Origin: a virus | Length of the DNA stretch: 64,000 nt | Virus genome (UHGV): UHGV-1376088 | Reading direction: 5' to 3' (one strand) | Shown here: positions 17,966-63,510 of the stretch, piece after piece | How positions within the stretch are numbered: the stretch's first letter is position 1 | Layout of the letters: every line of letters starts with the position of its first letter | The notes under the pieces: model-generated | What the model saw: the letters and a program-made list of their open reading frames with translations, nothing else | What the model was told of the DNA's origin: nothing | Databases searched by the model: none | Program-made: the position numbers and the translations under genes

Positions 17966-18304
17966 AAATCTGGAAAATCAAAAAGATACAAATCAAAGAA
18001 ATCCTTGAAACAAAAGGATATTTCTTTTGTAATAAATATAAGCATTCACATGACAAAGCAAGAAGAATTATGCGCGAGCTGTGCAAAGAGGGTTTAGCAG
18101 AAAAGTGTGCTAGCCCTGCTGGACAAGTGGATGCTGTTTGTATTAGGGCCATAAAATGAGCACAACGACTATTTTACTACTTGTTCTTGCCAGTATCGTT
18201 GGCGGAATTATTATCGGGTTTATTGTTTTTGCTTTGTATTTTGCAAAAGGTTTCAAAATTAATTTCTAAACCTTATCTTAGAATTTTTGTCTAAAGGAAA
18301 CAAA

Positions 18305-19882
18305 ATGGCATCACCATTATTTAAAACTTCTCGTATCAATGTCTCTACGGGAGCATCTGTATCTGTACAGTCCAATAAGGTTAATACAACAAATGAATCC
18401 GGCGGCACTGCTTATGCTATGACACATCAGCATGCCCTTGCGCAATATGCTGTAACCGGTATGCTTGACGGCTATCTTCATGTTGATGGTCGAACTCAGC
18501 TGTCTCGTATTATTGAGCTGGCTGAAAAATGTAACAATAAGTATGTTGCGCAAGTTGCAATTTATGCCCACGAAAAAGGCTTCATGAAAGATACTTCTGC
18601 TTTGTTGCTGGGATATCTGATGAAAAAAGACCGCGATTTGTTTAACGCAATTTTTAAACGTATCATTACAAATGGCCGAATGTTAAGAACTTTCGTTCAA
18701 ATCATTCGTTCCGGTACTTTTGGCAATCGCAGTTTTGGTACAAATGCCAAACGCCAAATCCAAGATTGGCTAAATTCCGCAACAGACAAAACAATTATTA
18801 ATGCCTCCATTGGTAATGATCCGTCTCTGAAAGACATTATCAAAATGGTTCATCCAAAAGCACCAAATGAAAATCGTAACCAACTTTATCGTTGGGTTTG
18901 CGATATGGATTACCAGGAAGATAAACTTCCTGAACAGCTTCAACTGTATTTAAAATTGAAGCGTAATCCAGAAAAAGCAGAAGAACTGCCGGATTTGCCG
19001 TTCCAAATGTATACCTCTATGGGTTTAACAACAGAAGGTTGGAAACATATTGCTAATAATGCGACATGGAATCAGACCCGTATGAACTTGGCAACATTTG
19101 AGCGACATGGTGTATTTGGTGATAAAAGTTTTGCCGACAGAATTGCTGAGAAGCTTACATCTGAGCGTGATATCATTCGAAGTAAAGCTATGCCATTTGC
19201 CATTTTCTCTGCCTTTAAAAAGGCGGGCGATATTAGCTATAATATCCGCAAGGCTTTGAATAAAGCTGCAGAAATTTCTCTGCAAAATGTTCCGAAATTG
19301 GAAGGTAAAACAGTTGTTGCTGTTGACCGTTCTGGATCTATGTCCAGTCTGATTAATAGTCGCTCAACTGTTCGTGTAATGGATGTTGCAGCTGTTCTTG
19401 TTGCTGCTTTGAAAAACAAAAATCCAGATTTGGAAATTGTTTTATTCAATGACACAGCGTCCATTTATAAGCCAAAAGGCAAAACTCTTTTTGGTATCAG
19501 CGAAGAGCTTTCTCGTATGGCAAGCGGCGGAACAGATTGTGGTGCCGCAATGAAGTTTATCAAAAACCGGTACACAGATAAAGGCATGCCCGATAATATC
19601 ATCATGATTTCAGACAATGAATCATGGTTAGGTATGAGCAAGAATTTCTGGACATCCACAGGAACAGTTGAACAACTGAAATTAATTCGTCGTTCAAATC
19701 CTAATACCCGAATGATCAATATTGACGTAACTCCAGGTTCAAGTTCACAAACAGTTCCTGAAGAATACGTACTAAATATCGGCGGCTTTAATGACGCAGT
19801 ATTCCAAATCGCATCATTGTTCTTTAATTCTAAAGGCAATAAAGACTTTTGGATTTCTGAAATTAATAAAGTAGAAATTTAA
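18305..19882 (+). CDS. rsr: Ro60 ortholog (Rsr-like; TROVE domain + C-terminal vWA/MIDAS)
   Basis: ~525 aa; C-terminal vWA with MIDAS 'VVAVDRSGSMSS'; N-terminal helical TROVE-like region; SD 'aaggaa' before ATG (the track start 18287 is a TTG); followed by tRNA-like Y-RNA candidates. Confidence 0.65.
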   Translation: MASPLFKTSRINVSTGASVSVQSNKVNTTNESGGTAYAMTHQHALAQYAVTGMLDGYLHVDGRTQLSRIIELAEKCNNKYVAQVAIYAHEKGFMKDTSALLLGYLMKKDRDLFNAIFKRIITNGRMLRTFVQIIRSGTFGNRSFGTNAKRQIQDWLNSATDKTIINASIGNDPSLKDIIKMVHPKAPNENRNQLYRWVCDMDYQEDKLPEQLQLYLKLKRNPEKAEELPDLPFQMYTSMGLTTEGWKHIANNATWNQTRMNLATFERHGVFGDKSFADRIAEKLTSERDIIRSKAMPFAIFSAFKKAGDISYNIRKALNKAAEISLQNVPKLEGKTVVAVDRSGSMSSLINSRSTVRVMDVAAVLVAALKNKNPDLEIVLFNDTASIYKPKGKTLFGISEELSRMASGGTDCGAAMKFIKNRYTDKGMPDNIIMISDNESWLGMSKNFWTSTGTVEQLKLIRRSNPNTRMINIDVTPGSSSQTVPEEYVLNIGGFNDAVFQIASLFFNSKGNKDFWISEINKVEI

Positions 19883-19996
19883 TTTTAGATTTACAAAACA
19901 AAAATGTGTGGTTTAATCACTTCTACTGAGTAAGTAGAGTAATAGGTATCTCATTTCTTGTTTTCGGGGTACCTATTGCTATGTTTACTTTAGAGT

Positions 19997-20073
19997 CTAA
20001 GTGTAGCGCAGTCCGGTAGCGCATCTGCTTTGGGAGCAGAGGGTTGCAGGTTCGAATCCTGCCTCTTAGACCA
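19997..20073 (+). tRNA. tRNA-Pro (anticodon UGG)
   Basis: D-arm gcgc-agtccggta-gcgc; anticodon loop uuUGGga; T-loop ttcgaat; one U-U mismatch in the acceptor; CCA encoded. Confidence 0.7.
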
Positions 20074-20086
20074 CATTACAATTTTC

Positions 20087-20210
20087 GGGTGGTTAGTTTA
20101 ATGGGAAAACATTAAGTAATCTTTCTACTATTGTCTGAAAAGAATGCTTGAGAGATTTACATTTCACGGCTAATGAAAAGATACAGGTTCGAGTCCTGTA
20201 CCACCCTCCA
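20087..20210 (+). ncRNA. tRNA-like RNA (Y RNA / YrlA-like candidate) with ~47-nt insert in place of anticodon arm
   Basis: Perfect 7-bp acceptor gggtggt/accaccc; D-arm gttt-aatggga-aaac; canonical T-arm acagg-ttcgagt-cctgt; CCA; 124 nt total with no canonical anticodon stem-loop. Confidence 0.5.
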
Positions 20211-20215
20211 TATAT

Positions 20216-20357
20216 GGGCTGTTGGCGAAATTGGTAGACGCAAGGGTCATTTATAACCTATCAAACTTGTCCGATAGGAATGCCGATAGGTTTACATTTT
20301 TAAATTGAAAACTTAAGGACAACCCTCGATTTGCAGGTTCGACTCCTGCACAGCCCG
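20216..20357 (+). ncRNA. tRNA-like RNA (Y RNA / YrlA-like candidate) with ~65-nt insert in place of anticodon arm
   Basis: Perfect acceptor gggctgt/acagccc; class-II-type D-arm gcg-aaattggtaga-cgc; T-arm gcagg-ttcgact-cctgc; long-range helix agggt...accct enclosing ~72 nt with internal hairpins (cctatc/gatagg, ccgatagg repeated twice). Confidence 0.5.
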
Positions 20358-20367
20358 CCCTTTTAAT

Positions 20368-20619
20368 GCGAAGATAGTTTAATTGGTAAAACGCCACGCA
20401 AATCTTAGAATAATAACCATTATGTAGAGCCAAGTGGCTCGAAGAGCATACTCTATATTAAGATAGGGCTGGGTGCAATCCCGGGTATAGGCTAACGATC
20501 TATACTGAATGTAAATATTTTATGTCGAAAGACAGATAGCTCAATCCTTTAAGGAATGGTCTAAGATGGATAATTTCCGCGGTAAAGTGGTCATGCGGTG
20601 TCGATAGCTGCTCTTCGCT
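20368..20619 (+). ncRNA. tRNA-like element with ~175-nt insertion (intron-containing tRNA or large Y-like RNA)
   Basis: 5' gcgaaga-ta-gttt-aattggta-aaac D-arm and 3' ...gcggt-gtcgata-gctgc-tcttcgc acceptor pair 7/7 across 250 nt; the insert contains repeat A. Confidence 0.35.
20419..20516 (+). repeat. repeat element A (shared with 63372-63510)
   Basis: attatgtagRgccaagtggYtcgaagMgca ... ccgggtatagRYtaacgaYctatactgaaYRtaaa is shared between the two loci. Confidence 0.6.
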
Positions 20620-20655
20620 CCCTATTTAATTAACTGAATATCCAAAGGATTTAAG

Positions 20656-21183
20656 ATGCAGACGATTGCAATAAACCTAATAGGTGCACCCGGAACGGGC
20701 AAAAGCACAATAGCATCTGAGCTCTTTGCCAAGATGAAGTGGCTTGGATATGATGTTGAGTTGGTTTCCGAATACGCAAAAGAATTGGTTTGGGAACAAA
20801 GAAACGAAACTTTCAAGAATGAACTGTATCTATTTGCAAAACAGCATCATAGAATGTTTAGATTAAATGGTAAGGTGAAGTATATTATTACAGACCGCCC
20901 ATTAATTTTGTCTATTTTTTATAATCAAAAATATGGAAATGGCAGCAAAACATTCCGGCAGCTTGTATTGGAAGAAACAAATAAGTTTCAAAATATCAAT
21001 GTATTTCTGAATAGAACCAAACCATATGTTCAAAATGGCAGAAATCAAAGTGAAGAAGAATCCAATGAATTTGCAAAAGAAATATTCGAATCTCTTGAAA
21101 AATATTGCAATGGATATCTAATTCTAGACGCTGTTGAAAACCAGGCGTCTGAACATATATTGAATTTTGCAAAACAAGAATAA
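20656..21183 (+). CDS. P-loop NTPase/kinase-like protein
   Basis: Walker A 'GAPGTGKST' at the N-terminus, 'ITDRP' Walker-B-like; 175 aa; fold resembles small nucleoside/nucleotide kinases. Confidence 0.5.
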   Translation: MQTIAINLIGAPGTGKSTIASELFAKMKWLGYDVELVSEYAKELVWEQRNETFKNELYLFAKQHHRMFRLNGKVKYIITDRPLILSIFYNQKYGNGSKTFRQLVLEETNKFQNINVFLNRTKPYVQNGRNQSEEESNEFAKEIFESLEKYCNGYLILDAVENQASEHILNFAKQE

Positions 21184-21413: not shown

Positions 21414-21506
21414 GCTCCCGTACCATAAAAGGATAATGGAACTGACTTCTAATCAGTAAGCCAAACGAAGGCGAGTATGCGGGTTCGAGTCCTGCCGGGA
21501 GTGCCA
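21414..21506 (+). tRNA. class-II-shaped tRNA with anticodon UCU (Arg codon AGA), long variable arm, G73
   Basis: Acceptor gctcccg/cgggagt; D ccat/atgg; anticodon stem actga/tcagt with loop cuUCUaa; 21-nt variable arm with gcc/ggc hairpin; T-loop ttcgagt; CCA encoded. Confidence 0.6.
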
Positions 21507-21870: not shown

Positions 21871-22075
21871 GACATAAACTGCCTGGCATGATGCAGTTTT
21901 AACTATCTAATCTGCCATTATTATTCTCAGTCTGGCATTCGCCAAAATGTTGCCGCATTTTGAGAATGATAAAATCATAGATGGTTATTTTCTGGTCCTA
22001 GCAGTCAATTTAGTTGACCCAGTACACTGTAAGCTGGAACTAAAGATAACGATTTAAACCCTGTTCTCCCTAAGC

Positions 22076-22146
22076 AATAATGTAGTTCAGTGGTAGAGCG
22101 TCTGCAATTTGGCAGAATGGCGGTGGTTCGATTCCACCCTTTATTG
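22076..22146 (+). tRNA. tRNA-like gene with non-canonical (6- or 8-nt) anticodon loop, identity undetermined (UUU/UUG region)
   Basis: Acceptor aataatg/ctttatt (6/7 pairs); D gttc-agtggta-gagc; stem tctgc/gcaga around 'aatttg'; T-arm ggtgg-ttcgatt-ccacc; one nt shorter than canonical; possible pseudogene or frameshift-type tRNA. Confidence 0.4.
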
Positions 22147-22631
22147 ACGAGAACAGGTACTCAATTTAATAATGAATCTTTATTCAGATTCATTTAGTCT
22201 GACAATGGTGTGATGAAATCTTAAGGGCTGTTCTTTGGATATTCTTAGTCTAATATTGAAATGTGCATTTCTTTATTGGGCTCTGTTTTATTTGAAGATA
22301 AAGCTTAAAAGGTTGCGATAGCAATAAAAACAATAAGGTGTTGCACAGCGCCTGTTTGGAGTATATTGTGAATGCTTGCACGTGTGCCGCGGAGGTACAA
22401 GGTTCCCGGAGTGGGATAAGTCAGACTAAATGTATTTGAAGCTAATTAAAGCTTAAAGATTTAAGCCCTGCTGATTTCTTATATAATATTGTTTATTATG
22501 ATTATTCTTATATTAGATAAATACTATTTTATCTTTTTCATTTTTCAGCAGGCATATTTAAGCCCTATTAGTTTATTCCGCAATATAGCTAAAATATTGT
22601 TCTAAAAATTAATAGGCAAAATAAAGATTAT

Positions 22632-22706: not shown

Positions 22707-23491
22707 GATCCTTTCCTAGTGAGGATAACCACTGGTGACTTTTATGGATTTTGAACAGTGAAAATTCTTTGCCCCTTATGCAATAGTTAAGGCGTTTTCC
22801 GTGATGCGAGAAGTTCACGGCGCAATCCACAACGCGATAATCGTGGCGCTGCCCTTCGAAGCGATACGTTAGGGGTCTTCCTTTAGGCTTAATAAAAGGT
22901 AGTTTTTAGAGATTTATATTAAAAGCTCTATAGTTCTGTAGAATACAGAGCAATGGGTTCGTTGCCTGTTCCCATTGCTATGTGTTTTGACTTCCCGGCG
23001 GCCACTGGTTAATGGTCTGACTTAGATTGGTTCAAAGAAATCAATCCCCAAGGTGAGGGTATCGCACCTGTTGTAGGTTGTTCATAAAACCTTCGGTCTT
23101 TTGTGCTCTTTATTCCTTAATACAGGAGCATCGATTGGGTAATGAGACATAAGGTCCCAGTGGGTTTTAGCTTTTTTAACCACGCGAGTGATGTCGCAAA
23201 AGCAAAATGCATTTATGTATTGTTTACAGTATATAAAGTGATAGGTTTCTGCAGGACCTATTGCTGTATGTATTAATATCCCGCGAACCTTCGGTAAATG
23301 GTTCACCTTGCCAAAAGGAAAATTGGAAGTCTGGCATTGCTATGGAAGAATGCTGGTTCGTTGGTCCATCCTTAAAACCGATAAGCTTTTTGTGCATTTA
23401 CGGCTTTGACGATAAATGCCCCGAACTATTAATGTGAATGTATAGCCAGAGTGAATCCTTCTGGGGAGTGATGTCCGAAAAGGATTACAAT

Positions 23492-24452: not shown

Positions 24453-24646
24453 AAAGATTATGGGCAGGTAGTTTAAGAGGAAAAAACCACGTGGGTGTAT
24501 ACCTTCGACGTTATTGGAATCGAGGCCAATTCTGTCCACTAATTTCCCATTTCCCATATATTTCAATCATCAATCCTTTCCACAGTACAGGGTTAAAATA
24601 TTTTGACTAATAGCGCCAACTAGCGGTCAAAGCTAATGGGAATTTC

Positions 24647-25689: not shown

Positions 25690-25780
25690 ACCACCTTAGC
25701 TTAATGGTAAAGCAGCGAGCTTATACCTCGTAACGACAGATAATCGGCTGATCTGGGTTCGAGTCCCGGAGGTGGTACCA
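25690..25780 (+). tRNA. class-II-shaped tRNA with anticodon UAU (Ile AUA), long variable arm
   Basis: Acceptor accacct/aggtggt; D gctt-aatggta-aagc; anticodon stem gcgag/ctcgt with loop cuUAUac; ~21-nt variable region; T-loop ttcgagt; A73; CCA. Confidence 0.55.
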
Positions 25781-28564: not shown

Positions 28565-29464
28565 ATGGACTTTATGAAGCTGCATAAATATAATCCTAAG
28601 AAAGACTATTCGAGATGGTATTTACAGGAAAAAGTTGATGGAGTGTTCGCAGCCATTGATGTTAATACTGGTATTGCTTATAGTCGAACTGGCAAACCTT
28701 TATTTATTCCTGAGGGCACAACATTAAGGTGCACCATGGATTATATTCGTATGTATTACTCAGTAAACAAGCAGCCGGCGAATACTTTTATTATTGCTGA
28801 AATTTTTTCTTTTGGTTTAACACTTGAACAGATGTCAGGATTGTTAAATCCGAATCGCAAAGAACCATGGGATAAAACTATCCTGACAGATTGGTCCGTT
28901 TATGCACATGACTTTGTAACACTGGTTGATGGTGTTGATAATACACCTTATAGTGAACGCTACAACAAGATTATTCGTATGCCTCAGAATTGTGTGGACT
29001 TGCGCCGTGTGTATAACATTGTATTGGAAAATGCTAAAGAGGCAGCTGCTGCAAAAATCGAAGAAGAATTTAACGATCTTATGTTGTTAAATTGTGAAGG
29101 CATTGTACTTAAAGATCCAAATGGCATCTATCGTATGGGTAAACGCGTCAATACGCAGGTTAAACGTGTTCGTGAGCATCTTGAAGATGTAAGAATCGAA
29201 CAGGTTAAATACGGTACTGGTAAACGTAATGGACAAATAGGCTCAATGTACTGTAGGTCTATTGATAATCCTGAAATAGCTTTTTGGGCAGACTTCGGAT
29301 TAAATTGGGATGACGCCAAAAGAATCGAATTGACCTCTAAATTCGAATTAGACAATAAGTCTCTTATTGGTACAATATGGACGGTTAAGGGATTGCAACA
29401 AAGTAGCACTGGTAAATCTATACGTTTGCCAAAATTAATGTATATGCGATTTGACAAGGAGTAG
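28565..29464 (+). CDS. lig: ATP-dependent DNA ligase (short T7-like nucleotidyltransferase)
   Basis: Motif I 'QEKVDGVFAAI' (KxDG), motif IV 'EGIVLKDPNGIY', motif V 'RMGKRVNTQVKRV'. Confidence 0.65.
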   Translation: MDFMKLHKYNPKKDYSRWYLQEKVDGVFAAIDVNTGIAYSRTGKPLFIPEGTTLRCTMDYIRMYYSVNKQPANTFIIAEIFSFGLTLEQMSGLLNPNRKEPWDKTILTDWSVYAHDFVTLVDGVDNTPYSERYNKIIRMPQNCVDLRRVYNIVLENAKEAAAAKIEEEFNDLMLLNCEGIVLKDPNGIYRMGKRVNTQVKRVREHLEDVRIEQVKYGTGKRNGQIGSMYCRSIDNPEIAFWADFGLNWDDAKRIELTSKFELDNKSLIGTIWTVKGLQQSSTGKSIRLPKLMYMRFDKE

Positions 29465-32533: not shown

Positions 32534-32992
32534 ATGCCTAAGCTTACAATTACAGTTGGCGTCTCTGCTTCTGGTAAAACAACCTGGGTAAAAAGTTTAG
32601 ACGAAGTAGAATTTTTCAATACAGTAAATATCAATAAAGACGATATTAGGTTTAATATCATTAAGCCCGGCGCAAATTGGAAGACATATAATCCAAGGGG
32701 AAATGAAACGAAAGTTACCCAGCTCCAAGTTGCACTTGTAGAATCTGCTGTCTCATCTAGAGAAAATATTATTATTTCTGATACAAATCTTAATCCAAAA
32801 GTTCGTAGCTTCTGGAAAGATTTTGCCCGTAAGAATTACTATGACTTTGAAATCAAAGAGTTCTCAATCTCTTTAGAAGAGGCGATTAAAAGAGACGCAA
32901 ATAGAGAAAATAGCGTAGGCGAAGAAGCCATTAAGAAACAATATCAATTATGGCTCCATTATTTAGAAACCAAAGAATCTAAGGAAATGTGA
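32534..32992 (+). CDS. pnk: polynucleotide 5'-kinase (T4 Pnk kinase-domain homolog, no phosphatase domain)
   Basis: 'LTITVGVSASGKTTWV' ~ T4 Pnk 'LTIGCPGSGKSTWA'; 'INKDDIRF' ~ 'INRDDYR'; 'IISDTNLNPKVR' ~ 'IISDTNLNPERR'. Confidence 0.75.
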   Translation: MPKLTITVGVSASGKTTWVKSLDEVEFFNTVNINKDDIRFNIIKPGANWKTYNPRGNETKVTQLQVALVESAVSSRENIIISDTNLNPKVRSFWKDFARKNYYDFEIKEFSISLEEAIKRDANRENSVGEEAIKKQYQLWLHYLETKESKEM

Positions 32993-43929: not shown

Positions 43930-44649
43930 ATGCAAGGCAAAATTAATATTGAAGTTTTGAGTCAAGACAAAGCTATTATCCATGTTCAGGATCTGCAAGG
44001 TAAATGCACATCTAAAATGGTTACAACAAAAGCTGCCGCTGCGGCTCTGGCTGGCCCTAATGGTGAAGCTAAAGATTCTGGATTGATCCCCCAAAACATT
44101 TTAAGAATTTGGGAGAATTCACAATACAAGGGCTATTTGATTTATCAGCCGTCTAGAATGTTTGGCATTAAATATGAAGGAAGGTCATTGCGCCAAGTCA
44201 AACTTCCTGGAATTGTTATGAAAGCAGTTGTGAATTCAAGAGGGCAATTTATCGGCGATAGAAGCTCTATCTTTATTTGTAATGGCGATGAAATCAAACC
44301 CGATACAAAACTTTGGCATTTACGAATGAACAATTATAGCTCCGGTTATGGTATTTGCTGGGGCGATAATAAGAATATTGCAAATTCGATTCTAGCTAGT
44401 GGAAACCTATTTGATATTGAGCAGCTCCCGCAATTATTCTTTGGATCAACATTTAACTCGGATTTGGATAATACATATATCTTTGACAATTCCATGTTAA
44501 GAAGAATTAATGAAAATCCTTCAATTCCTAATCATAGAAATTTAACAGTTCAATTTTTTACATTGAAAGGGTTAGAGAATGAAGATTATAATCTGGAATC
44601 CGAATTAATGACCGAATATGATGCGGTTCTTAGCGGCATTATGATGTAA
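43930..44649 (+). CDS. hypothetical protein
   Basis: SD 'aaaggaag'. Confidence 0.45.
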   Translation: MQGKINIEVLSQDKAIIHVQDLQGKCTSKMVTTKAAAAALAGPNGEAKDSGLIPQNILRIWENSQYKGYLIYQPSRMFGIKYEGRSLRQVKLPGIVMKAVVNSRGQFIGDRSSIFICNGDEIKPDTKLWHLRMNNYSSGYGICWGDNKNIANSILASGNLFDIEQLPQLFFGSTFNSDLDNTYIFDNSMLRRINENPSIPNHRNLTVQFFTLKGLENEDYNLESELMTEYDAVLSGIMM

Positions 44650-44677
44650 ATTTGCGAAATAATTAAAGGAAAATATT

Positions 44678-46054
44678 ATGAGTTTGAGCGTTGCTGATCT
44701 GATGGGCGAAATGGATTTTCGTTTGCCGAAGGTTGTACAAAGCAAAGAAGAAGCAGAAGATGGCGATTCTATTGTAGCTGAAGACGGTATCTATAAATTG
44801 GTCCGCGCCATTATTGGTGACTTCTGGATTAAGGCAGAAAGCTTTAAGACTAAGATGGTTGGAATGCCGCAGCTGTCAGAAAGCTTTACACAGTCATCTG
44901 AAATTCCTAAAATCCCAGGTGAATTGTTTTACGGTATTATCAGATTCTACCGTAAAATTTACGAAACAAATAAAAATGAAGTGATGGCCCAGATTTGGTG
45001 GGATAAAGAAGAGCGCAAATTCCTGGTTGAAGTTCCAGAACAAGAAGTTGCAGGTGCTTCTATTACTTATCAAAGAACCGGCGGATGGTATGATGATCCT
45101 AATAAGGTCCTTGTATTGACATCTCACTCACATCATACAATGGGTGCATTCTATTCATCCGTAGACAATTCAGATGAAAAAGGCAAACATGGAATTTACT
45201 CATTTGTATTTGGCAATTTAGTAAATAAGCCTGACGGAACATTTACATATAAAACCGTTCAGCGCGTATGCTGTGCAGACGCATTAATTCCATTACAGCT
45301 GGAAGATATTTTTGATTTTACCGAAGGTTGCGAATTTCTTTTCGAAATCCCAGAAGAGGATTACGCAAAAGTTAAAGCTAAAGTTTATAACTATGGAGCT
45401 TATGCTAATTATGGCAAATCTAAATCAAAGGGGTTTCCTTACACGGGCGGCCAATCAACTCCCGCAAACGTCTCAAAAATCGAAGACAACTATGAATTTT
45501 ACTCAGGATATCTGGGTTATTCTTACGGGAGTTATGACAGCGCTTGGGATTCTGTGGATTATCCTAACAATGCTTCAACTGTAGGATCAAGCGCTATAGA
45601 AAAACGATGGCAAACTGGTGCTGAAGCCACGGTTGACAGAGTTAAATATGGATATATTTCCTCTATACTGAGAGGAATGTCCAAGCCTGGCGATGAGCTC
45701 CTGTATAACTATTTTGAATTCAAAGAAATTGAATCTATTGTTTCTGATTTTGTAAATGCTGTAAGCCTGCCGGAAACACATCCGTATTATATGTTCGCAG
45801 AGCTTCTGAACTCATTTATGTCTAATCTTTTGGAAGGTCTTTCAGATGTACAATATGGTGATCGTGAAGGGCTTAGCAAAATTGAAGATCCATCAAAAGC
45901 ATTTGCCGTTGTGATTGCATCTGCTATTAGTGGTGTGGAGGATTCTTTTAATAGTATGGCTTCTCCTAATAGCGCTGTTGACCTTATGAAAGACCATAAT
46001 TTGAGCTTTTTGTATCTACCAGAACGAATTGCCGCTTATTTAAAAGATTTTTAA
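44678..46054 (+). CDS. JAB/MPN (JAMM) metalloprotease-domain protein
   Basis: 'SHSHHTMGAFYSSVD' = JAMM motif HxHx7Sx2D; 458 aa with an uncharacterised C-terminal half. Confidence 0.6.
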   Translation: MSLSVADLMGEMDFRLPKVVQSKEEAEDGDSIVAEDGIYKLVRAIIGDFWIKAESFKTKMVGMPQLSESFTQSSEIPKIPGELFYGIIRFYRKIYETNKNEVMAQIWWDKEERKFLVEVPEQEVAGASITYQRTGGWYDDPNKVLVLTSHSHHTMGAFYSSVDNSDEKGKHGIYSFVFGNLVNKPDGTFTYKTVQRVCCADALIPLQLEDIFDFTEGCEFLFEIPEEDYAKVKAKVYNYGAYANYGKSKSKGFPYTGGQSTPANVSKIEDNYEFYSGYLGYSYGSYDSAWDSVDYPNNASTVGSSAIEKRWQTGAEATVDRVKYGYISSILRGMSKPGDELLYNYFEFKEIESIVSDFVNAVSLPETHPYYMFAELLNSFMSNLLEGLSDVQYGDREGLSKIEDPSKAFAVVIASAISGVEDSFNSMASPNSAVDLMKDHNLSFLYLPERIAAYLKDF

Positions 46055-46066
46055 AGGAAATACCTT

Positions 46067-46969
46067 ATGCAAAATGCTGTACTTGGCAGAAAGAAAATTG
46101 AATTTATTTCAACTCAAGATGAAATCAATAAGCATCAGAAAGAAGTTGAAGATTACGAAATGACAAAATTAATGCAACGTCTTTCGTCCGCCGAAACTAA
46201 TGCTCCTAAAAAGCCGCTTGACCGCATTGTTGTTGTTGGTTGTGGCGGAACTGGCTCTTGGTTAATTCCAAAACTTGCAAAAACCATCAATGATATGAAG
46301 CGCAAGAAATTACTTGCTAATCATTTTTCTTTGATTCTTGTTGATGGCGACCAAATTGAACCTAAAAATTTGATTCGGCAGAACTTTGTTGAATCAGATA
46401 TTGGTAAAAATAAAGCGGAAATCATGGCTCTTCGATATGGGGCAACGCTTAAAGATATTAATGTCCAATATATCGACAAGTATTTGACCGATAAGTCAAG
46501 TTTTGACACTAATCACTTTTCCCATATCAATGTTTTGCAGAATATGATTTACGATGACAATTATTGTGTCATATTCAATCTTGTTGATAACCAAAATGCA
46601 AGACGCGCGGTTCACTCATTACAGTTCTGCGGCTGGATTGTTGATATTGGTAATGAACTGGCACATGGCCAATTGTTTGCAACTCCATATGGTTTGACTA
46701 GTGGCTTTATTGGATCATTAAGCTTCTTCACTATGTCTCCGGAAACGTTGACGGCAGATGAAGAAGTGAAAATTTATTCTTGCGCCGAAGCCGATGCGGA
46801 TACAGAGCTGGAAGAACAGTTCTTGGTTGCCAACGATACAGCTGCTTTGGTTGGACATAACTGGCTATGCTCTTTAATGAGCGGTCCAGATGTAGTTCCT
46901 GCAAGAATTAATTTTACATGCTTGCCAATTCCGACCGTAGAAACAGTGTTGAAAACAATCCGGTTTTAA
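46067..46969 (+). CDS. E1-like (ThiF/MoeB family) adenylyltransferase
   Basis: Rossmann 'RIVVVGCGGTGSWLI'; 'LILVDGDQIEPKNLIRQ' matches the E1 DxD...NLxRQ motif. Confidence 0.6.
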   Translation: MQNAVLGRKKIEFISTQDEINKHQKEVEDYEMTKLMQRLSSAETNAPKKPLDRIVVVGCGGTGSWLIPKLAKTINDMKRKKLLANHFSLILVDGDQIEPKNLIRQNFVESDIGKNKAEIMALRYGATLKDINVQYIDKYLTDKSSFDTNHFSHINVLQNMIYDDNYCVIFNLVDNQNARRAVHSLQFCGWIVDIGNELAHGQLFATPYGLTSGFIGSLSFFTMSPETLTADEEVKIYSCAEADADTELEEQFLVANDTAALVGHNWLCSLMSGPDVVPARINFTCLPIPTVETVLKTIRF

Positions 46970-47024: not shown

Positions 47025-48566
47025 ATGGAAGATAAAAATTTGTGTTTGAGCTTTTTAGCGCCTATGATGAATTTGTCTCAAACATTTTTAAATATTATCG
47101 AAAAAATTGAAAACGAAGAATGCTCTATTGACTCTTCGTTTCCTGAAAAGTTATTCAATAAGACGCCAAAAGAAGATGTTTTAAACGCGATTGAAACTCT
47201 CATTGATTATAATAATTTATTTTTGATTGACTTTGATGAGTATTCGAAAAAAGTAAAAACCTTATCAGATTTCGTTGGTAATTGTAACAACACAATTCTT
47301 TTCAGAAACTTTAGAACTGATAAGGGTCGTGAAGTTTGCTATATCAATAAGCAGATCCCAGACATTTATTCAGATAGGATTAAAGAGATCCATTCTAATA
47401 TTAGACCCTTAATAGGCCGCCTAACTCCTAGACTGAATTTAATTAAAAATCAGAATTCTACAGATTCATATGTAGACATTAATTACGATCAGATGGCCAT
47501 CAAATCAGATATTTCTTCGTTCTTTCGCTCTGTAAGATTTGAAAATGTTATTAAATACCTCTCTAAGACTTTCCTTGTTAAAAATATACTTATGTATAGC
47601 AAAAGTCAAACTGAAAACAAAGAGCTTAGAGTATTTGAGCGAATTGAAATTGCTTTATGGGGATTTATTAGTTGTCTATTCCATAATGGTATTATCCCTA
47701 CTGGAGCTAGATATGCAAATGATTTAGCCGCCTGCTATTTGAATAATCTTGTTTTTAATACCTTTAGAAAGGACATGCTATATTCGAATCGTGCAAGAAT
47801 CTATGTATATGTAGATGACCTGCTCTTTCTCGGAGAGGAAGGCAATGTTAAAGAATTTTATGCGGAATTCGAAAAGGCTATCAATAAAGGCGGACTATAT
47901 CTGAATTATAAGAAGACTCAATATTTTTATCCTAAAAATGGAATTCTTGAGTATTCTTCTTTGGGCAGAACTAGAAAATTTGACTTCACAACTGGTTTTG
48001 TTTCTAAAGTTGATTCGAAAGCCCGCAAAAAATGTTTGGATATTATTAAAGAGCGCCGCGAATACGATGCCTCTGAGAAGGGTATCATTAATTATGCATT
48101 ATATATGAGGCATGGAGCCAATAAGATTGTCAATCCAGATATATTAATGCATTCTTATTTTAATGATAAATCCGAACTGTGGGATAAACTTATAGCAGGT
48201 GAATTGAATCTGAAATTGAATAAGAGTATTTTTGATCCCACTAATCTGAAATATAAGGATATATGTATAATGTCAAAAGATATTGATGTCGGTTTTCTTT
48301 CCGCTCATCAATTCCTTGACATTACAGATGCGATAGCAGAATTTGTAAAACTGTTTATCCTCGACAATCCTTTTGGTCTTAACCTATATGGAATTAATCT
48401 AACAGAATCCAATGAGGGTAATTATAATTTAATTCTGAATTTGGTAAGACAACGATCCAGAGGCACTGCGAATATAATCCCATGTCCTTTAATTTTCAGA
48501 AAAGATTTCCTAAACGGACTTTATGTAGAAGGCAAAGATGAAAGCGCTTTAAATGGATGGATATAA
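47025..48566 (+). CDS. reverse transcriptase (standalone, unclassified)
   Basis: Motif A 'IKSDISSFFRSV', motif B' 'GIIPTGARYANDLAACYLNNL', motif C 'YVYVDDLLFLG', motif D 'LYLNYKKTQY'; extra N- and C-terminal regions; SD 'aaggaag'. Confidence 0.7.
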   Translation: MEDKNLCLSFLAPMMNLSQTFLNIIEKIENEECSIDSSFPEKLFNKTPKEDVLNAIETLIDYNNLFLIDFDEYSKKVKTLSDFVGNCNNTILFRNFRTDKGREVCYINKQIPDIYSDRIKEIHSNIRPLIGRLTPRLNLIKNQNSTDSYVDINYDQMAIKSDISSFFRSVRFENVIKYLSKTFLVKNILMYSKSQTENKELRVFERIEIALWGFISCLFHNGIIPTGARYANDLAACYLNNLVFNTFRKDMLYSNRARIYVYVDDLLFLGEEGNVKEFYAEFEKAINKGGLYLNYKKTQYFYPKNGILEYSSLGRTRKFDFTTGFVSKVDSKARKKCLDIIKERREYDASEKGIINYALYMRHGANKIVNPDILMHSYFNDKSELWDKLIAGELNLKLNKSIFDPTNLKYKDICIMSKDIDVGFLSAHQFLDITDAIAEFVKLFILDNPFGLNLYGINLTESNEGNYNLILNLVRQRSRGTANIIPCPLIFRKDFLNGLYVEGKDESALNGWI

Positions 48567-54475: not shown

Positions 54476-56233
54476 ATGGACTTTGTATCCACTCCTGAAA
54501 ATCCAAATGGTGATATTAAACCCGAAGATATCGGGAAGTATACGAATTTACATGCTCATAGCATTTATAGTCCTTTAGATGGCTTCGGTAAGCTTGAAGA
54601 ATATTGCGAACGGGTAAAAGCTCTAGGGATGAAAGGCTTATGCCTTTCTGAACATGGCAATATGATTGGTCATCATGAACAGGCTAAGATTTGTGCTAAG
54701 CATGGCATTAAGCCTATTTTTGCTAATGAAGGGTATATGACTCTTCATGCCGGATCTATTAAAGAAAAGATAGAGGGTTATAAGGCGAACTATCATATTT
54801 TGCTTATTGCTATTAATGAGCAGGGTTATAGAAACCTTATGAAAGCTACATCTATTGCTTGGACACGTTATAAATATTATAAGCCACGCTTTGATTTAGC
54901 ACTTCTTGAAGAATGCAACGAGGGCCTGATTTGTACATCTGCTTGTCTTGGCGGACCAATTAATCAGTTATATTTAGATGGCCGACCTGAAGAGGCTGAA
55001 CAGGTTGCGCTAAAGCTGAAAGAGATTTTCGGCGATAGATTTTATTTGGAAAAAACTTATACCGGCTTAGAAGAGCAAGATATTGCTAATAAGAATTTGG
55101 TTGAGATTTCTAAAAAGCATAATATACCTATGATTATTACTTGTGATAGTCATTATGTTTATCCTTGGCAATCTGATAGTCATGCAAAATTGGTTATGGT
55201 TAATACTGGCGGTCAAATCAATAAAGCGATTAAGGCTGCCGGCTTAACTGACTCTAGCAAAGAAGATGCTGACGTAGATAGCAACTCTATGTTCTATCAG
55301 CCTAGTCAGTATTATGTTAAACCACATCATGTATTGGTTGAAGAATATTATTCTAATCCTGAAGATGAAGAAGCCTTTGCCAATACTAATAAAATTGCAG
55401 ATATGTGCAATGTGGTTTTACCTAAAAATGAAGACATCATTTTTCCTTCACCATATTCTGATCCCGATTCTGTTTTAAGAGGACGGGCAATGCAATGGTA
55501 TTCGGAATACTCTAAAAAACTTTCTGATGAACAAAAAGCATTGTATTTAGATAGGCTGGAAGAAGAGCTGGATATGTATTCTAAAATGGGCTTTAGTTCT
55601 TATCCTTTGGTGCTGCAAGAGATTCTTGATGAAGCCAAAGCGAAAGGCATTATGATTGGCCCTGGCCGAGGATGCCTATTTGAGGGAACTAAAGTTCTAA
55701 TTAATAGATCCGGATCCATATATTATTGTCCGATTGAATTTGTCAAAGTCGGCGATATGGTATGGACACATAATAGCAGATGGAAGTCTGTATATCATAC
55801 CACTAAATATGTTGTAGACTATAGAGATATGGTTACTCTCGAGACAGAATATGGTATGATGCACCTCACAGAAGACCATAAAGTAAAAACAAAAAACCAT
55901 GGATTTATCCCTGCTATTGAATTAGACGGACAAATACACACACTGGATAGAGGAACTTTATCCGATGAAATTCTGTCTAAAGTTGAAGATTATAAAACCG
56001 ATTCAATCGAAAATTTTGAACTTTCTAGCTTCTATAATGAGGATGAACCTGTAAGGGTTTATGATCTTATGGTTGATGAAGATTGTTCTTTTAGAACTAA
56101 TATCTGTATGGTGCACAATAGTGCCGCGGGGTCTTTACTCTCTTATGCATTAGGTATTACTGCTATTGACCCTATACCATATGGACTAATGTTCAGTCGT
56201 TATCTTAACGCCGGACGCGCAAAACTACCGGTT
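54476..56233 (+). CDS. dnaE: DNA polymerase III alpha (DnaE) exon 1: PHP domain through the GPGRG...SAAGS...LNAGRAKLPV region, containing a mini-intein
   Basis: PHP 'NLHAHSIYSPLDGFG...CLSEHGNMIGH'; 'GIMIGPGRG[intein]SAAGSLLSYALGITAIDPIPYGLMFSRYLN'; homology to E. coli '...ERVSMPDFDVDFC' ends at ...KLPV; the ORF then reads 18 non-homologous codons to a stop at 56287. Confidence 0.8.
55673..56119 (+). other. mini-intein (Hint domain, 149 aa, no homing endonuclease) in DnaE
   Basis: Inserted between GPGRG and SAAGS; begins 'CLFEG' (Cys1) and ends 'VHN' followed by Ser+1; length consistent with a mini-intein. Confidence 0.7.
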
Positions 56234-56290
56234 ATTGAAATTAAAGGCTACCCATTAAAAGAGTGGCTAACAACAGAAAGAAAATAAAAA

Positions 56291-63001: not shown

Positions 63002-63257
63002 ATATAAAACATTAAGAGAATTAGTTTTATCCTTTTCTGACACCGATTGGTTTAAAGAACATAGAGCAAATATTATGTTTGAATTAAACCATTGTGAACT
63101 TCATCATATTGATTCCTATTATTTGAATTTATACAATGCAGGCGTTAAAGGTATAGAGGAAAATGAAGCTAATTCTTCTATTGCATATTTACTCGGAATT
63201 GTAACAACCCCGCCAAATGGTAAAGTTCATACTGTTGGCGGAGGTTTCCCGGATTAA
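62994..63257 (+). CDS. hypothetical protein
   Basis: ATG with 'aggtaaag' RBS (the track start 62976 is an upstream ATG). Confidence 0.4.
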   Translation: MAEYKTLRELVLSFSDTDWFKEHRANIMFELNHCELHHIDSYYLNLYNAGVKGIEENEANSSIAYLLGIVTTPPNGKVHTVGGGFPD

Positions 63258-63371
63258 AGAAATAGTCCCTTTGTTAAGAAATTGACAACAGAAAACTCTG
63301 TGAAAACGGTGGAACTCTCTAGAAGACAATGCCGTGCGAAAGTTTGCGAAAGCGAAAGACGTGTAACGACT

Positions 63372-63510
63372 ATTATGTAGGGCCAAGTGGTTCGAAGCGC
63401 AGAGCACCTAAATCCTTATGGACATGGTGATGAGATAGTCTGGTCTCTATGGCGACATAGAGCTGGTTTTGTACCGGGTATAGATTAACGACCTATACTG
63501 AACATAAACG
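63372..63510 (+). repeat. repeat element B (shares termini with 20419-20516); candidate intron 3' core abutting dnaE exon 2
   Basis: attatgtagggccaagtggttcgaagcgca ... ccgggtatagattaacgacctatactgaacataaacg; contains 'gagatagtc' resembling a group I P7/S-element; ends in G immediately before the exon. Confidence 0.5.

Follow-up and report, generated by a model that had tools for sequence, protein, structure and literature searches.

We analysed a 64 000-nucleotide (nt) stretch of the virus genome UHGV-1376088 (the window) and, within it, a transfer RNA (tRNA)-like element at positions 20368-20619 that we call module 3. Module 3 very probably belongs to a tRNA-derived family of five-armed RNAs, carries a dead intron fragment nested in its extra arm, and does not self-splice. 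Our best reading of its role, held with moderate confidence, is that of a functional, tRNA-derived, non-decoding small RNA that would serve as a Y-RNA-like partner of the Ro60 protein encoded by the same phage. The coordinates of the features are collected in Table 1.

A tRNA-like frame closed around a composite insert

The two ends of module 3 form an acceptor stem in which GCGAAGA (20368-20374) and TCTTCGC (20612-20618) make seven out of seven Watson-Crick pairs, followed by TCCC. U8 and A9 come after the 5' strand of the acceptor, and the D-arm (GTTT-AATTGGTA-AAAC, 20377-20392) is canonical. The T-arm (GCGGT-GTCGATA-GCTGC, 20595-20611) has a stem of five pairs, two of them G-U, and a loop that does not follow the TTCRANY consensus, position 54 being G and the 53-61 pair U-G. 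Among the features that define a tRNA, module 3 therefore has the 7-bp acceptor, U8 and a D-arm with G18G19, and lacks T54-Psi55-C56-R57-A58 with a G53-C61 pair, a 7-nt anticodon loop with its stem (U33, R37) and a 3' CCA. It was not called by ARAGORN, and gave no match to the Rfam tRNA model at the gathering threshold or at E ≤ 10.

Both strands of the window were scanned for tRNA-like frames, defined by a hairpin resembling a T-arm, a complementary acceptor strand no more than 450 nt upstream of it and a D-arm. Ten frames were found, namely eight canonical tRNAs and modules 1 and 3, and none in any of 40 dinucleotide-preserving shuffles of the window. An earlier first-pass annotation had noted that an acceptor plus D-arm and a T-arm plus acceptor pair 7/7 as the two halves of a tRNA-like module; sequence, frame scan and shuffles all confirm this. 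The insert of ~175 nt that it placed between them has to be redrawn: the stretch from D-arm to T-arm is 202 nt long and composite, consisting of the family arm described below and a nested, intron-derived piece of ~110 nt. None of 1265 single deletions converted module 3 into an ARAGORN tRNA, but the same scan on control modules returned >500 ARAGORN calls of many identities; it is far too permissive for the insert to be located in this way.

The structure of module 3, derived by homology, comprises the acceptor, the D-arm, a CCAC/GTGG helix, the family arm, nested hairpins, a GUC-GAAA-GAC hairpin, the family hairpin and the T-arm. Over five variants it is 96% paired and includes seven pairs with compensatory change, such changes occurring in the D-stem, the arm helix and the T-stem. 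A local stem, TTTCC/AGTGG, pairs at only 3/5 positions; instead, CCAC/GTGG closes the whole insert, and is paired in 100% of the five variants, with C-G becoming U-G in the related contigs L002 and L199. The helix of the family arm shows two adjacent compensatory pairs relative to L004, L002 and L199; modules 1 and 2 each have a homologous helix in their arm. The stem of the family-signature hairpin also covaries (TCT/AGA, TCC/GGA, TCCC/GGGA).

The five-arm module family

Relatives of the locus were recovered via the Ro60 protein and via refined DNA patterns, an initial, looser pattern having given chance matches. Every related viral or metagenomic contig of 170-190 kb that we examined has two or three modules after Ro60 and tRNA-Pro. 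Thirty-two distinct modules of 120-142 nt share a conserved ~46-nt insert after the D-arm, which is composed of a helix, UUGUC, a small hairpin, GGAAUGC and a returning strand ending GGUUUACAUUU. The family was defined by the acceptor, D- and T-arms of a tRNA together with this post-D arm, the latter having a covarying helix, a small hairpin with GGAAUG, and a 3' strand ending (G)GWUWA(C)AUUU. All of these elements were found in module 3 by homology, and its helices are paired with compensatory changes. Homology and covariation thus bear out the first-pass description of a third tRNA-like module, in that module 3 is the third paralogue of a tandem family.

For 12 members of ~120 nt, RNAalifold returned an ordinary cloverleaf with a fifth arm between the D-arm and the anticodon arm. 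In this alignment 97.5% of cells were paired and 15 of 30 pairs showed compensatory change; none of 500 shuffles equalled it, and slid registers reached ~50%. Module 1, in which the loop of the anticodon-type arm is CGGCTAA, scored 46.8 bits on the Rfam tRNA model with a 63-nt insertion, and 126 bits on the covariance model of the family. Module 2 scored 67.4 bits (E 6.5e-14), with the arm aligned, on a covariance model built from ~120-nt members of the module 1/3 type and trained without it. It has no canonical anticodon loop; its closing helix, AGGGT/ACCCT (20243-20247 with 20322-20326), covaries to AGGAG/CTCCT in L003 and L131. RNAalifold gave a non-cloverleaf consensus for module 2, which arose from alignment problems at the 3' closing helix and was not used. 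The 147-nt orthologues of module 3 scored 57-62 bits on the family model, compared with ≤46 bits for ordinary tRNAs. Because of its nested 110-nt insertion, the long module 3 aligns only in part (17.8 bits); its orthology to the 147-nt form is plain from the alignment.

With the arm deleted in silico, ARAGORN called tRNA-Ser(GCT), Ile(GAT), Thr(GGT) and Gly(TCC), and module 1 can be aligned with an ordinary tRNA-Ile(GAT) found after tRNA-Pro in the Escherichia coli phage ECO340P1. These results indicate that the family is derived from tRNA genes. We found no description in Rfam 15 or the searchable literature of an arm at position 26/27 on a tRNA-like RNA beside Ro60. The family hairpin with AAUGC looks by eye like the group I intron elements P5-J5/4-P4' or P8-J8/7-P7', but this likeness was set aside: searches gave no significant similarity and the elements come in an inconsistent order. 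Two distant relatives (L130, 5770-7157, and L181, 471-873; Ro60 58-64% identical) have three modules in a changed order or spacing, with one copy in L130 lying ~1 kb further downstream.

An intron fragment nested in module 3

By blastn, positions 20416-20448 match 63369-63401 at 88% (E 1.5e-5) and 20481-20509 match 63474-63502 at 90% (E 5e-5), the latter coordinates being those of an intron in dnaE; the shared repeat has no other copies within the window. A MAFFT alignment extended the homology to 20415-20524, from the 5' strand of P7 to the 3' end of the intron. For these ~110 nt, the first-pass proposal that the insert shares ancestry with the dnaE intervening sequence is upheld. The fragment contains the 5' strand of P7, an IA-type hairpin GAGCC-AAGT-GGCTC (20427-20440), a P3'-like GAGC (20444-20447), a P9-like hairpin (20451-20468), post-P9 hairpins at 20469-20484 and 20485-20505, and a tail like the 3' end of the intron; beyond the Rfam alignment, the subgroup and the helix names are those that we presume from the general pattern of IA introns. 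As homology begins only at the 5' strand of P7, P1-P6 are absent, and a 41-column gap in the alignment removes P8, J8/7 and the 3' strand of P7 (P7'). A search with permissive filters found no Intron_gpI match over 19900-20750 at E ≤ 10, whereas the dnaE copy scored 67.2 bits in the same type of search. In L004 the homology runs ~6-10 nt past the intron into exon 2 of dnaE, which argues for a copy made at the DNA level rather than a product of homing or reverse splicing.

The fragment is present in the window (identical to L179), in L203 and in L004. In L002 and L199 module 3 is 147 nt long and has a simple hairpin where the fragment would be, and in L001, L005, L177, L181, L174 and others it is 119-122 nt long and fragment-free. 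Module 3 is therefore long only because the intron fragment sits in an extra arm common to the whole family. Judged by its sequence, the fragment is a dead copy of the 3' half of the phage's own dnaE intron and cannot splice.

The dnaE intervening sequence itself is a genuine T4 td-like group I intron. It gave blastn matches to T4-like td introns, and its removal in silico (63255-63510) joins the dnaE frame (...GGGFPD / IDSDVEKERR...). The same intron is found at the same site in seven other viral contigs, related or other (L218, L221-L223, L225, L228 and L229), and the insertion site (...GGxGGxTTYCCGGAT/TAA...) is conserved. Its P7-proximal hairpin motif recurs in other phage group I introns. 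Compared with the T4 td-type (subgroup IA) introns, of which the dnaE intron is a member, the piece in module 3 shares the P7-proximal, P9 and post-P9 hairpins of the dnaE intron at 88-90% but is without P1-P6, P8 and P7'. With a separate PHP / Pol III alpha open reading frame (ORF) present at 54476-56287, fragmentation or duplication of the polymerase gene is possible.

Rates of change and capacity to decode

Rates were compared with L203, using third codon positions of Ro60 (36/532 differences) as the reference. The cores of modules 1-3 differ at 4/406 sites (Fisher p 5e-6), and the core of module 3 without the nested piece at 1/141, against 6.8% at the third codon positions (p 0.003). The intron fragment aside, change in the modules is ~7-10 times slower than at synonymous sites, and they are therefore functional. 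The nested fragment, with 6/110 differences (p 0.83), drifts at about the neutral (synonymous) rate. Its hairpins nevertheless remain paired, with one double change (GTATAG/CTATAC to GCATAG/CTATGC) for which weak selection on structure or an exchange with an intron variant could account; probably the fragment rides in a tolerant loop with its hairpins kept.

CCA is encoded by 12 of the 14 tRNAs in the window and is absent from modules 2 and 3, both of which end in CCC. An anticodon stem-loop is missing from module 2 and from the long form of module 3. In module 1 the prevailing loop, CGGCTAA, carries G33 and is kept throughout the clade; C33 or a pyrimidine at 37 occurs in several loops of module 3, and the 'anticodon' differs between orthologues. 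Functional as they are, the modules probably do not decode.

A candidate partner for the phage Ro60 protein

On protein comparison, the ORF at 18287-19882 is a full-length, divergent Ro60/TROVE homologue. It has a full-length phmmer match to phiRo60 of the Thermus phage phiLo (9KOP/9L5Y; E 9e-15), with further matches to Ro60 and Rsr chains, to Pfam vWA_Ro60 (6e-12), to PHROG 850 'RNA-binding protein' (3e-37) and to NCBIfam Rsr (5e-9, well under the curated cut-off). From the end of this gene (19882) to the start of module 3 (20368) there are 485 nt on the same strand, within the ~4 kb criterion for Y RNAs. The order Ro60, tRNA-Pro, modules is kept in relatives, and by tblastn a Ro60 homologue (58-100% identity) adjoins the modules at all related loci whose flanks are long enough.

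Bacterial and phage Y RNAs lie ≤4 kb from Ro60 on the same strand and are tRNA mimics (PMC4201824), and phiRo60 binds adjacent, CGAA-bearing Y-like RNAs (PMC12135203). In module 3, GUCGAAAG (20524-20531) fits both the YrlA motif GNCGAAN0-1G and the CGAA motif of phiRo60, in a small internal hairpin and not near the 5' end. The sequence UCGAAAG does not vary among the five module 3 variants of long or intermediate form, despite Ro60 proteins of only 82% identity. On the grounds of gene linkage, tRNA mimicry and this constant motif we tentatively suggest Ro60 as the partner of the modules. With a shade more reserve, the five-armed mimics may represent a structurally novel class among the RNA partners of Ro60 (phage Y RNAs), with an unpermuted cloverleaf and a putative protein-binding arm at 26/27. 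A GUCCGA seen in some family hairpins was considered as the metazoan Ro60 site GGUCCGA and rejected; the loop varies and the hairpin is a local, covarying one.

In the mechanism that we envisage, Ro60, tRNA-Pro and modules 1-3 would be co-transcribed, and RNase P together with 3' processing would free each module at its tRNA-like ends. The L-shaped, tRNA-like body would provide stability and contact with tRNA-handling enzymes, whilst the conserved arm (in module 3 also the UCGAAAG hairpin) would be the docking site for the adjacent Ro60. The outcome would be a Y-RNA-like ribonucleoprotein that might act in RNA surveillance, RNA repair or counter-defence during infection.

The resemblance to known systems is partial. 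Like the modules, YrlA (RF02553; PMC4201824) is a small RNA ≤4 kb from Ro60 on the same strand, with tRNA-like T- and D-arms in which an A15:U48-type Levitt pair is possible; its stem has a GNCGAA-type motif, and in module 3 a sequence that fits this motif lies in the small internal hairpin. However, YrlA is circularly permuted: its 5' and 3' ends together make the stem that binds Ro60, on the anticodon side, and a loop caps its acceptor stem, whereas the modules have open ends at a normal 7-bp acceptor, retain an anticodon-type arm or closing helix, and carry the candidate protein-binding arm after the D-arm. The closest solved relative of the window Ro60 is phiRo60 of phiLo with Yrl1/Yrl2 (9KOP/9L5Y; PMC12135203), where the partner RNAs also adjoin the gene and depend on CGAA. 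Those RNAs, unlike the modules, are simple stem-bulge-stems upstream of the gene and are not tRNA-shaped; binding has been demonstrated for phiRo60, and we infer it here. In E. coli phage Bas63 a Ro60-like gene, gp130, which counters the Ppl defence, is likewise followed by a tRNA array, and the authors of that study speculate that some of the 'tRNAs' downstream of this anti-defence gene are Y RNAs (PMC11482910). In contrast to the window, no RNA has been characterised and no fifth arm reported there, and there was no tblastn similarity to the window Ro60. Of the two explanations offered by the first-pass annotation, that of a larger Y-like RNA is the better fit, given the proximity of Ro60 and the conserved linkage, but module 3 is not a member of YrlA: an Rfam search found no canonical YrlA in the window.

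Several observations weigh against our best reading. Over 19900-20750 the YrlA model reached at best 17.8 bits (gathering threshold 69), in a match that takes in the module 2 T-arm together with the module 3 D-arm; the YrlA matches there, all below threshold, are artefacts of T- and D-arms that adjoin, and module 3 itself matched no ribozyme or Y RNA model at E ≤ 10. The modules end at the acceptor stem rather than at the anticodon side as in YrlA. The CGAA/GNCGAA motif is limited to long and intermediate forms of module 3, the hairpin loop varying in most other modules including 1 and 2. The link to Ro60 is one of adjacency and, as Ro60 heads a 6-kb tRNA array, this could reflect a general clustering of RNA genes. 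More distant phages with Ro60 (L006, 38% identity; Myxococcus phage Mx1, 35%) have neither modules nor YrlA nearby. In L004 the family hairpin-GGAAUG is deleted from module 3, so that the motif is dispensable at least there. Finally, some members have perfect anticodon loops (module 1 of L002, CTGATAA; L003, CTGGTAT; L174, ATTCCAA), and decoding by some paralogues is therefore possible.

Alternative explanations

It is highly improbable that a self-splicing group I intron akin to that of dnaE interrupts a tRNA in module 3 and leaves, on splicing, a tRNA of ~76 nt. Group I introns are known in bacterial tRNA genes (PMC3984707, PMC13011429) and ~110 nt of module 3 are homologous to one, but the lack of P1-P6, P8, J8/7 and P7', the silence of Intron_gpI, the homology reaching exon 2 of dnaE in L004 and the neutral rate of change all argue against splicing. 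The fragment also lies within the family arm and not in an anticodon loop, orthologues exist without it, and these are still non-canonical RNAs of 120-147 nt; no deletion of the insert yields a tRNA recognisable by ARAGORN. Group I intron-bearing bacterial tRNAs (tRNA-Leu UAA; tRNA-Asn/Asp of Patescibacteria, PMC13011429) likewise join a tRNA-type gene to group I sequence, but theirs are complete splicing ribozymes of ~200-300 nt in the anticodon loop, as opposed to a core-less piece in another arm that orthologues do without. The intron-containing tRNA of the first-pass annotation is contradicted by these results, and its proposed check with covariance models for group I introns and tRNAs matched module 3 with neither at E ≤ 10. 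We also consider it unlikely that the modules are decoding tRNAs in which the ~46-nt arm at 26/27 is either permanent or a protein-removed intron, resealed by end-healing and sealing enzymes of the phage. The tRNAs called after deletion of the arm have anticodons not duplicated in the window array, the anticodon stem of ~120-nt members covaries around a loop that is always 7 nt, module 1 resembles a normal phage tRNA-Ile, and the phage has a polynucleotide-kinase-like protein (PHROG 505, 1e-37) and an ATP-dependent ligase. Set against this are the missing anticodon stem-loops of module 2 and long-form module 3, the non-canonical residues at 33 and 37 (G33 being in the commonest module 1 loop), an 'anticodon' that switches freely between orthologues, the unconserved CCA, and the fact that no arm-less allele was found at any locus examined. 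By eye there is no bulge-helix-bulge motif and no defined 5' junction, the linker ranges from 5 to 11 nt, and there is no splicing endonuclease among the scanned ORFs; removal of the arm by proteins, as a tRNA intron outside the anticodon position, is more doubtful again. Class II tRNAs and archaeal tRNAs with non-canonical introns also have, respectively, an extra helix from the tRNA core and an intervening sequence outside the anticodon loop, but the class II arm is at 44-48, and the archaeal introns use the bulge-helix-bulge and splicing endonuclease that we did not find here.

We judge it somewhat unlikely that the modules, as tRNA-like RNAs, work independently of Ro60, for instance by decoying host anticodon nucleases or other tRNA-targeting defences or by serving the operon as RNase P punctuation. 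Mimics of tRNA with changed anticodon loops recall the ways in which phages are known to evade tRNA-targeting defences, the modules stand at the start of a large phage tRNA array, and they are under strong purifying selection without features for decoding. Such roles, however, leave unexplained both the highly conserved motifs of the fifth arm and the strict linkage to Ro60 over 58-100% protein identity, and punctuation would need no three paralogues with a conserved arm. It is very unlikely that module 3 is a decaying pseudogene, that is, a dead tRNA-like copy broken by illegitimate insertion of the intron fragment. Its T-loop is degenerate, its anticodon arm lost, its intron fragment neutral and, in L004, its family hairpin deleted; but a core that differs at a single position from L203, compensatory changes in D-stem, arm helix and T-stem, and the invariance of UCGAAAG and the flanking arm sequence alongside Ro60 proteins of only 82% identity speak against decay.

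The surrounding locus

The window is phage-like, with its long ORFs almost all on the + strand. ARAGORN identified a tRNA array of 14 genes, at the head of which, after the Ro60 ORF, tRNA-Pro and modules 1 and 2, module 3 is sited. Other genes in the window encode MetRS, a reverse transcriptase, RecA, thymidylate synthase and a polynucleotide-kinase-like ORF, with the split dnaE near the right end. The ORF just downstream was considered as an RNA repair enzyme and rejected, being thymidylate-kinase-like. A scan for promoters and terminators was uninformative, as counts were not above those in shuffles.

Table 1. Positions of the RNA elements, their parts and the associated genes in the window
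Feature	Position	Strand	Remarks
Gene for Ro60/TROVE (Rsr-like) RNA-binding protein	18287..19882	+	531 aa; directly upstream of the RNA array
tRNA-Pro(TGG), canonical	19997..20073	+	Between Ro60 and the modules; ARAGORN, and Rfam tRNA 66.5 bits
Module 1	20087..20210	+	tRNA-like; fifth arm (20116-20160) between D-arm and anticodon-type arm (20162-20178); 3' CCA
Module 2	20216..20356	+	Leu-type D-arm; family arm (20255-20292) inside the closing helix; ends GCCC
Module 3	20368..20619	+	tRNA-like RNA of 251 nt plus discriminator; third of three tandem copies
Closing helix of module 3, 5' strand CCAC	20394..20397	+	Pairs with GTGG at 20587-20590, in place of an anticodon stem
Family arm of module 3, 5' strand ATCTTAGA	20402..20409	+	Pairs with TCTAAGAT at 20560-20567
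Nested fragment derived from the dnaE intron	20415..20524	+	~110 nt; blastn and MAFFT alignment to the 3' half of the dnaE intron
Hairpin GTC-GAAA-GAC	20524..20533	+	Carries GUCGAAAG (20524-20531)
Family-signature small hairpin and GGAAUG (TCCTTTAAGGAATGG)	20545..20559	+	Homologous to TCY-loop-RGA-ATGC in all modules
Group I intron splitting dnaE	63255..63510	+	256 nt, ORF-less; Rfam Intron_gpI 67.2 bits (gathering threshold 50)

Other elements of the array are also unusual. Nucleotide identity is 75-85% between two long stretches without ORFs (22150-22631 and 22707-23491) and their counterparts in relatives with a Ro60 of only 58-82% identity. Both stretches gave better folds than their shuffles (z -4.6 and -3.1), neither drew an Rfam match at E ≤ 1, and they may be further structured non-coding RNAs. 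At 24462-24541 there is a degenerate tRNA-like element, GGGCAGG-TA-GTTTAAGAGGAAAAAC ... TCTGTCC, with a 7/7 acceptor in which two pairs are G-U; neither ARAGORN nor Rfam called it, and it scored 25.6 bits (E 4.5e-4) on the family covariance model. Long variable-arm-like hairpins, unusual for the isotypes, are found in tRNA-Arg(TCT) (21414-21506, 93 nt) and tRNA-Ile(TAT) (25690-25780, 91 nt). The length of tRNA-Arg is 76-77 nt in L003, L004 and L005 versus 92-93 nt in L001 and L002, and extra arms seem to have been gained and lost among the tRNAs of this phage group. The tRNA at 22075-22148 (Rfam tRNA 51 bits; CCA not encoded) was given a two-base, undetermined 'anticodon' (tt) by ARAGORN; in relatives the tRNA at the orthologous site is read as Ser(gga), Tyr(ata) or Lys(ttt).

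Elsewhere in the window (43930-46969 and 47025-48566), a prokaryotic E2-like, JAB-like and ThiF/E1-like trio, that is a ubiquitin-like conjugation set, lies beside a reverse-transcriptase ORF (RVT_1). The polynucleotide-kinase-like ORF (32534-32992), which matches PHROG 505 and has the kinase domain only, and the ATP-dependent ligase (28565-29464) are end-healing and sealing enzymes, with RNA as a possible substrate.

Implications

For annotation, the 250-nt 'split tRNA' is not a spliced tRNA, and the five-arm module family to which it belongs is absent from Rfam, a variant among tRNA-mimicking, Ro60-linked RNAs. Module 3 offers a clean natural case of intron-derived sequence tolerated inside a constrained RNA and, if the five-arm class is as we read it, of a functional non-coding RNA that has taken up part of a self-splicing intron. 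Were the arm after all a tRNA intron removed by proteins at a non-anticodon position, it would be the first of its kind in the bacterial and phage world.

Little is understood of Y RNAs and Ro60 in bacteria, and in phages they have hardly been explored; the known bacterial Y RNAs are permuted tRNA mimics. The clade of 170-190 kb phages seems to solve the same problem with a conserved arm grafted onto intact tRNA genes which, if true, widens the definition of a Y RNA and provides a concrete candidate set of Ro60 ligands in the form of three paralogues with natural variants. More generally, there may be regulatory RNAs among the tRNA-like genes of phage arrays that tRNA finders overlook or call wrongly.

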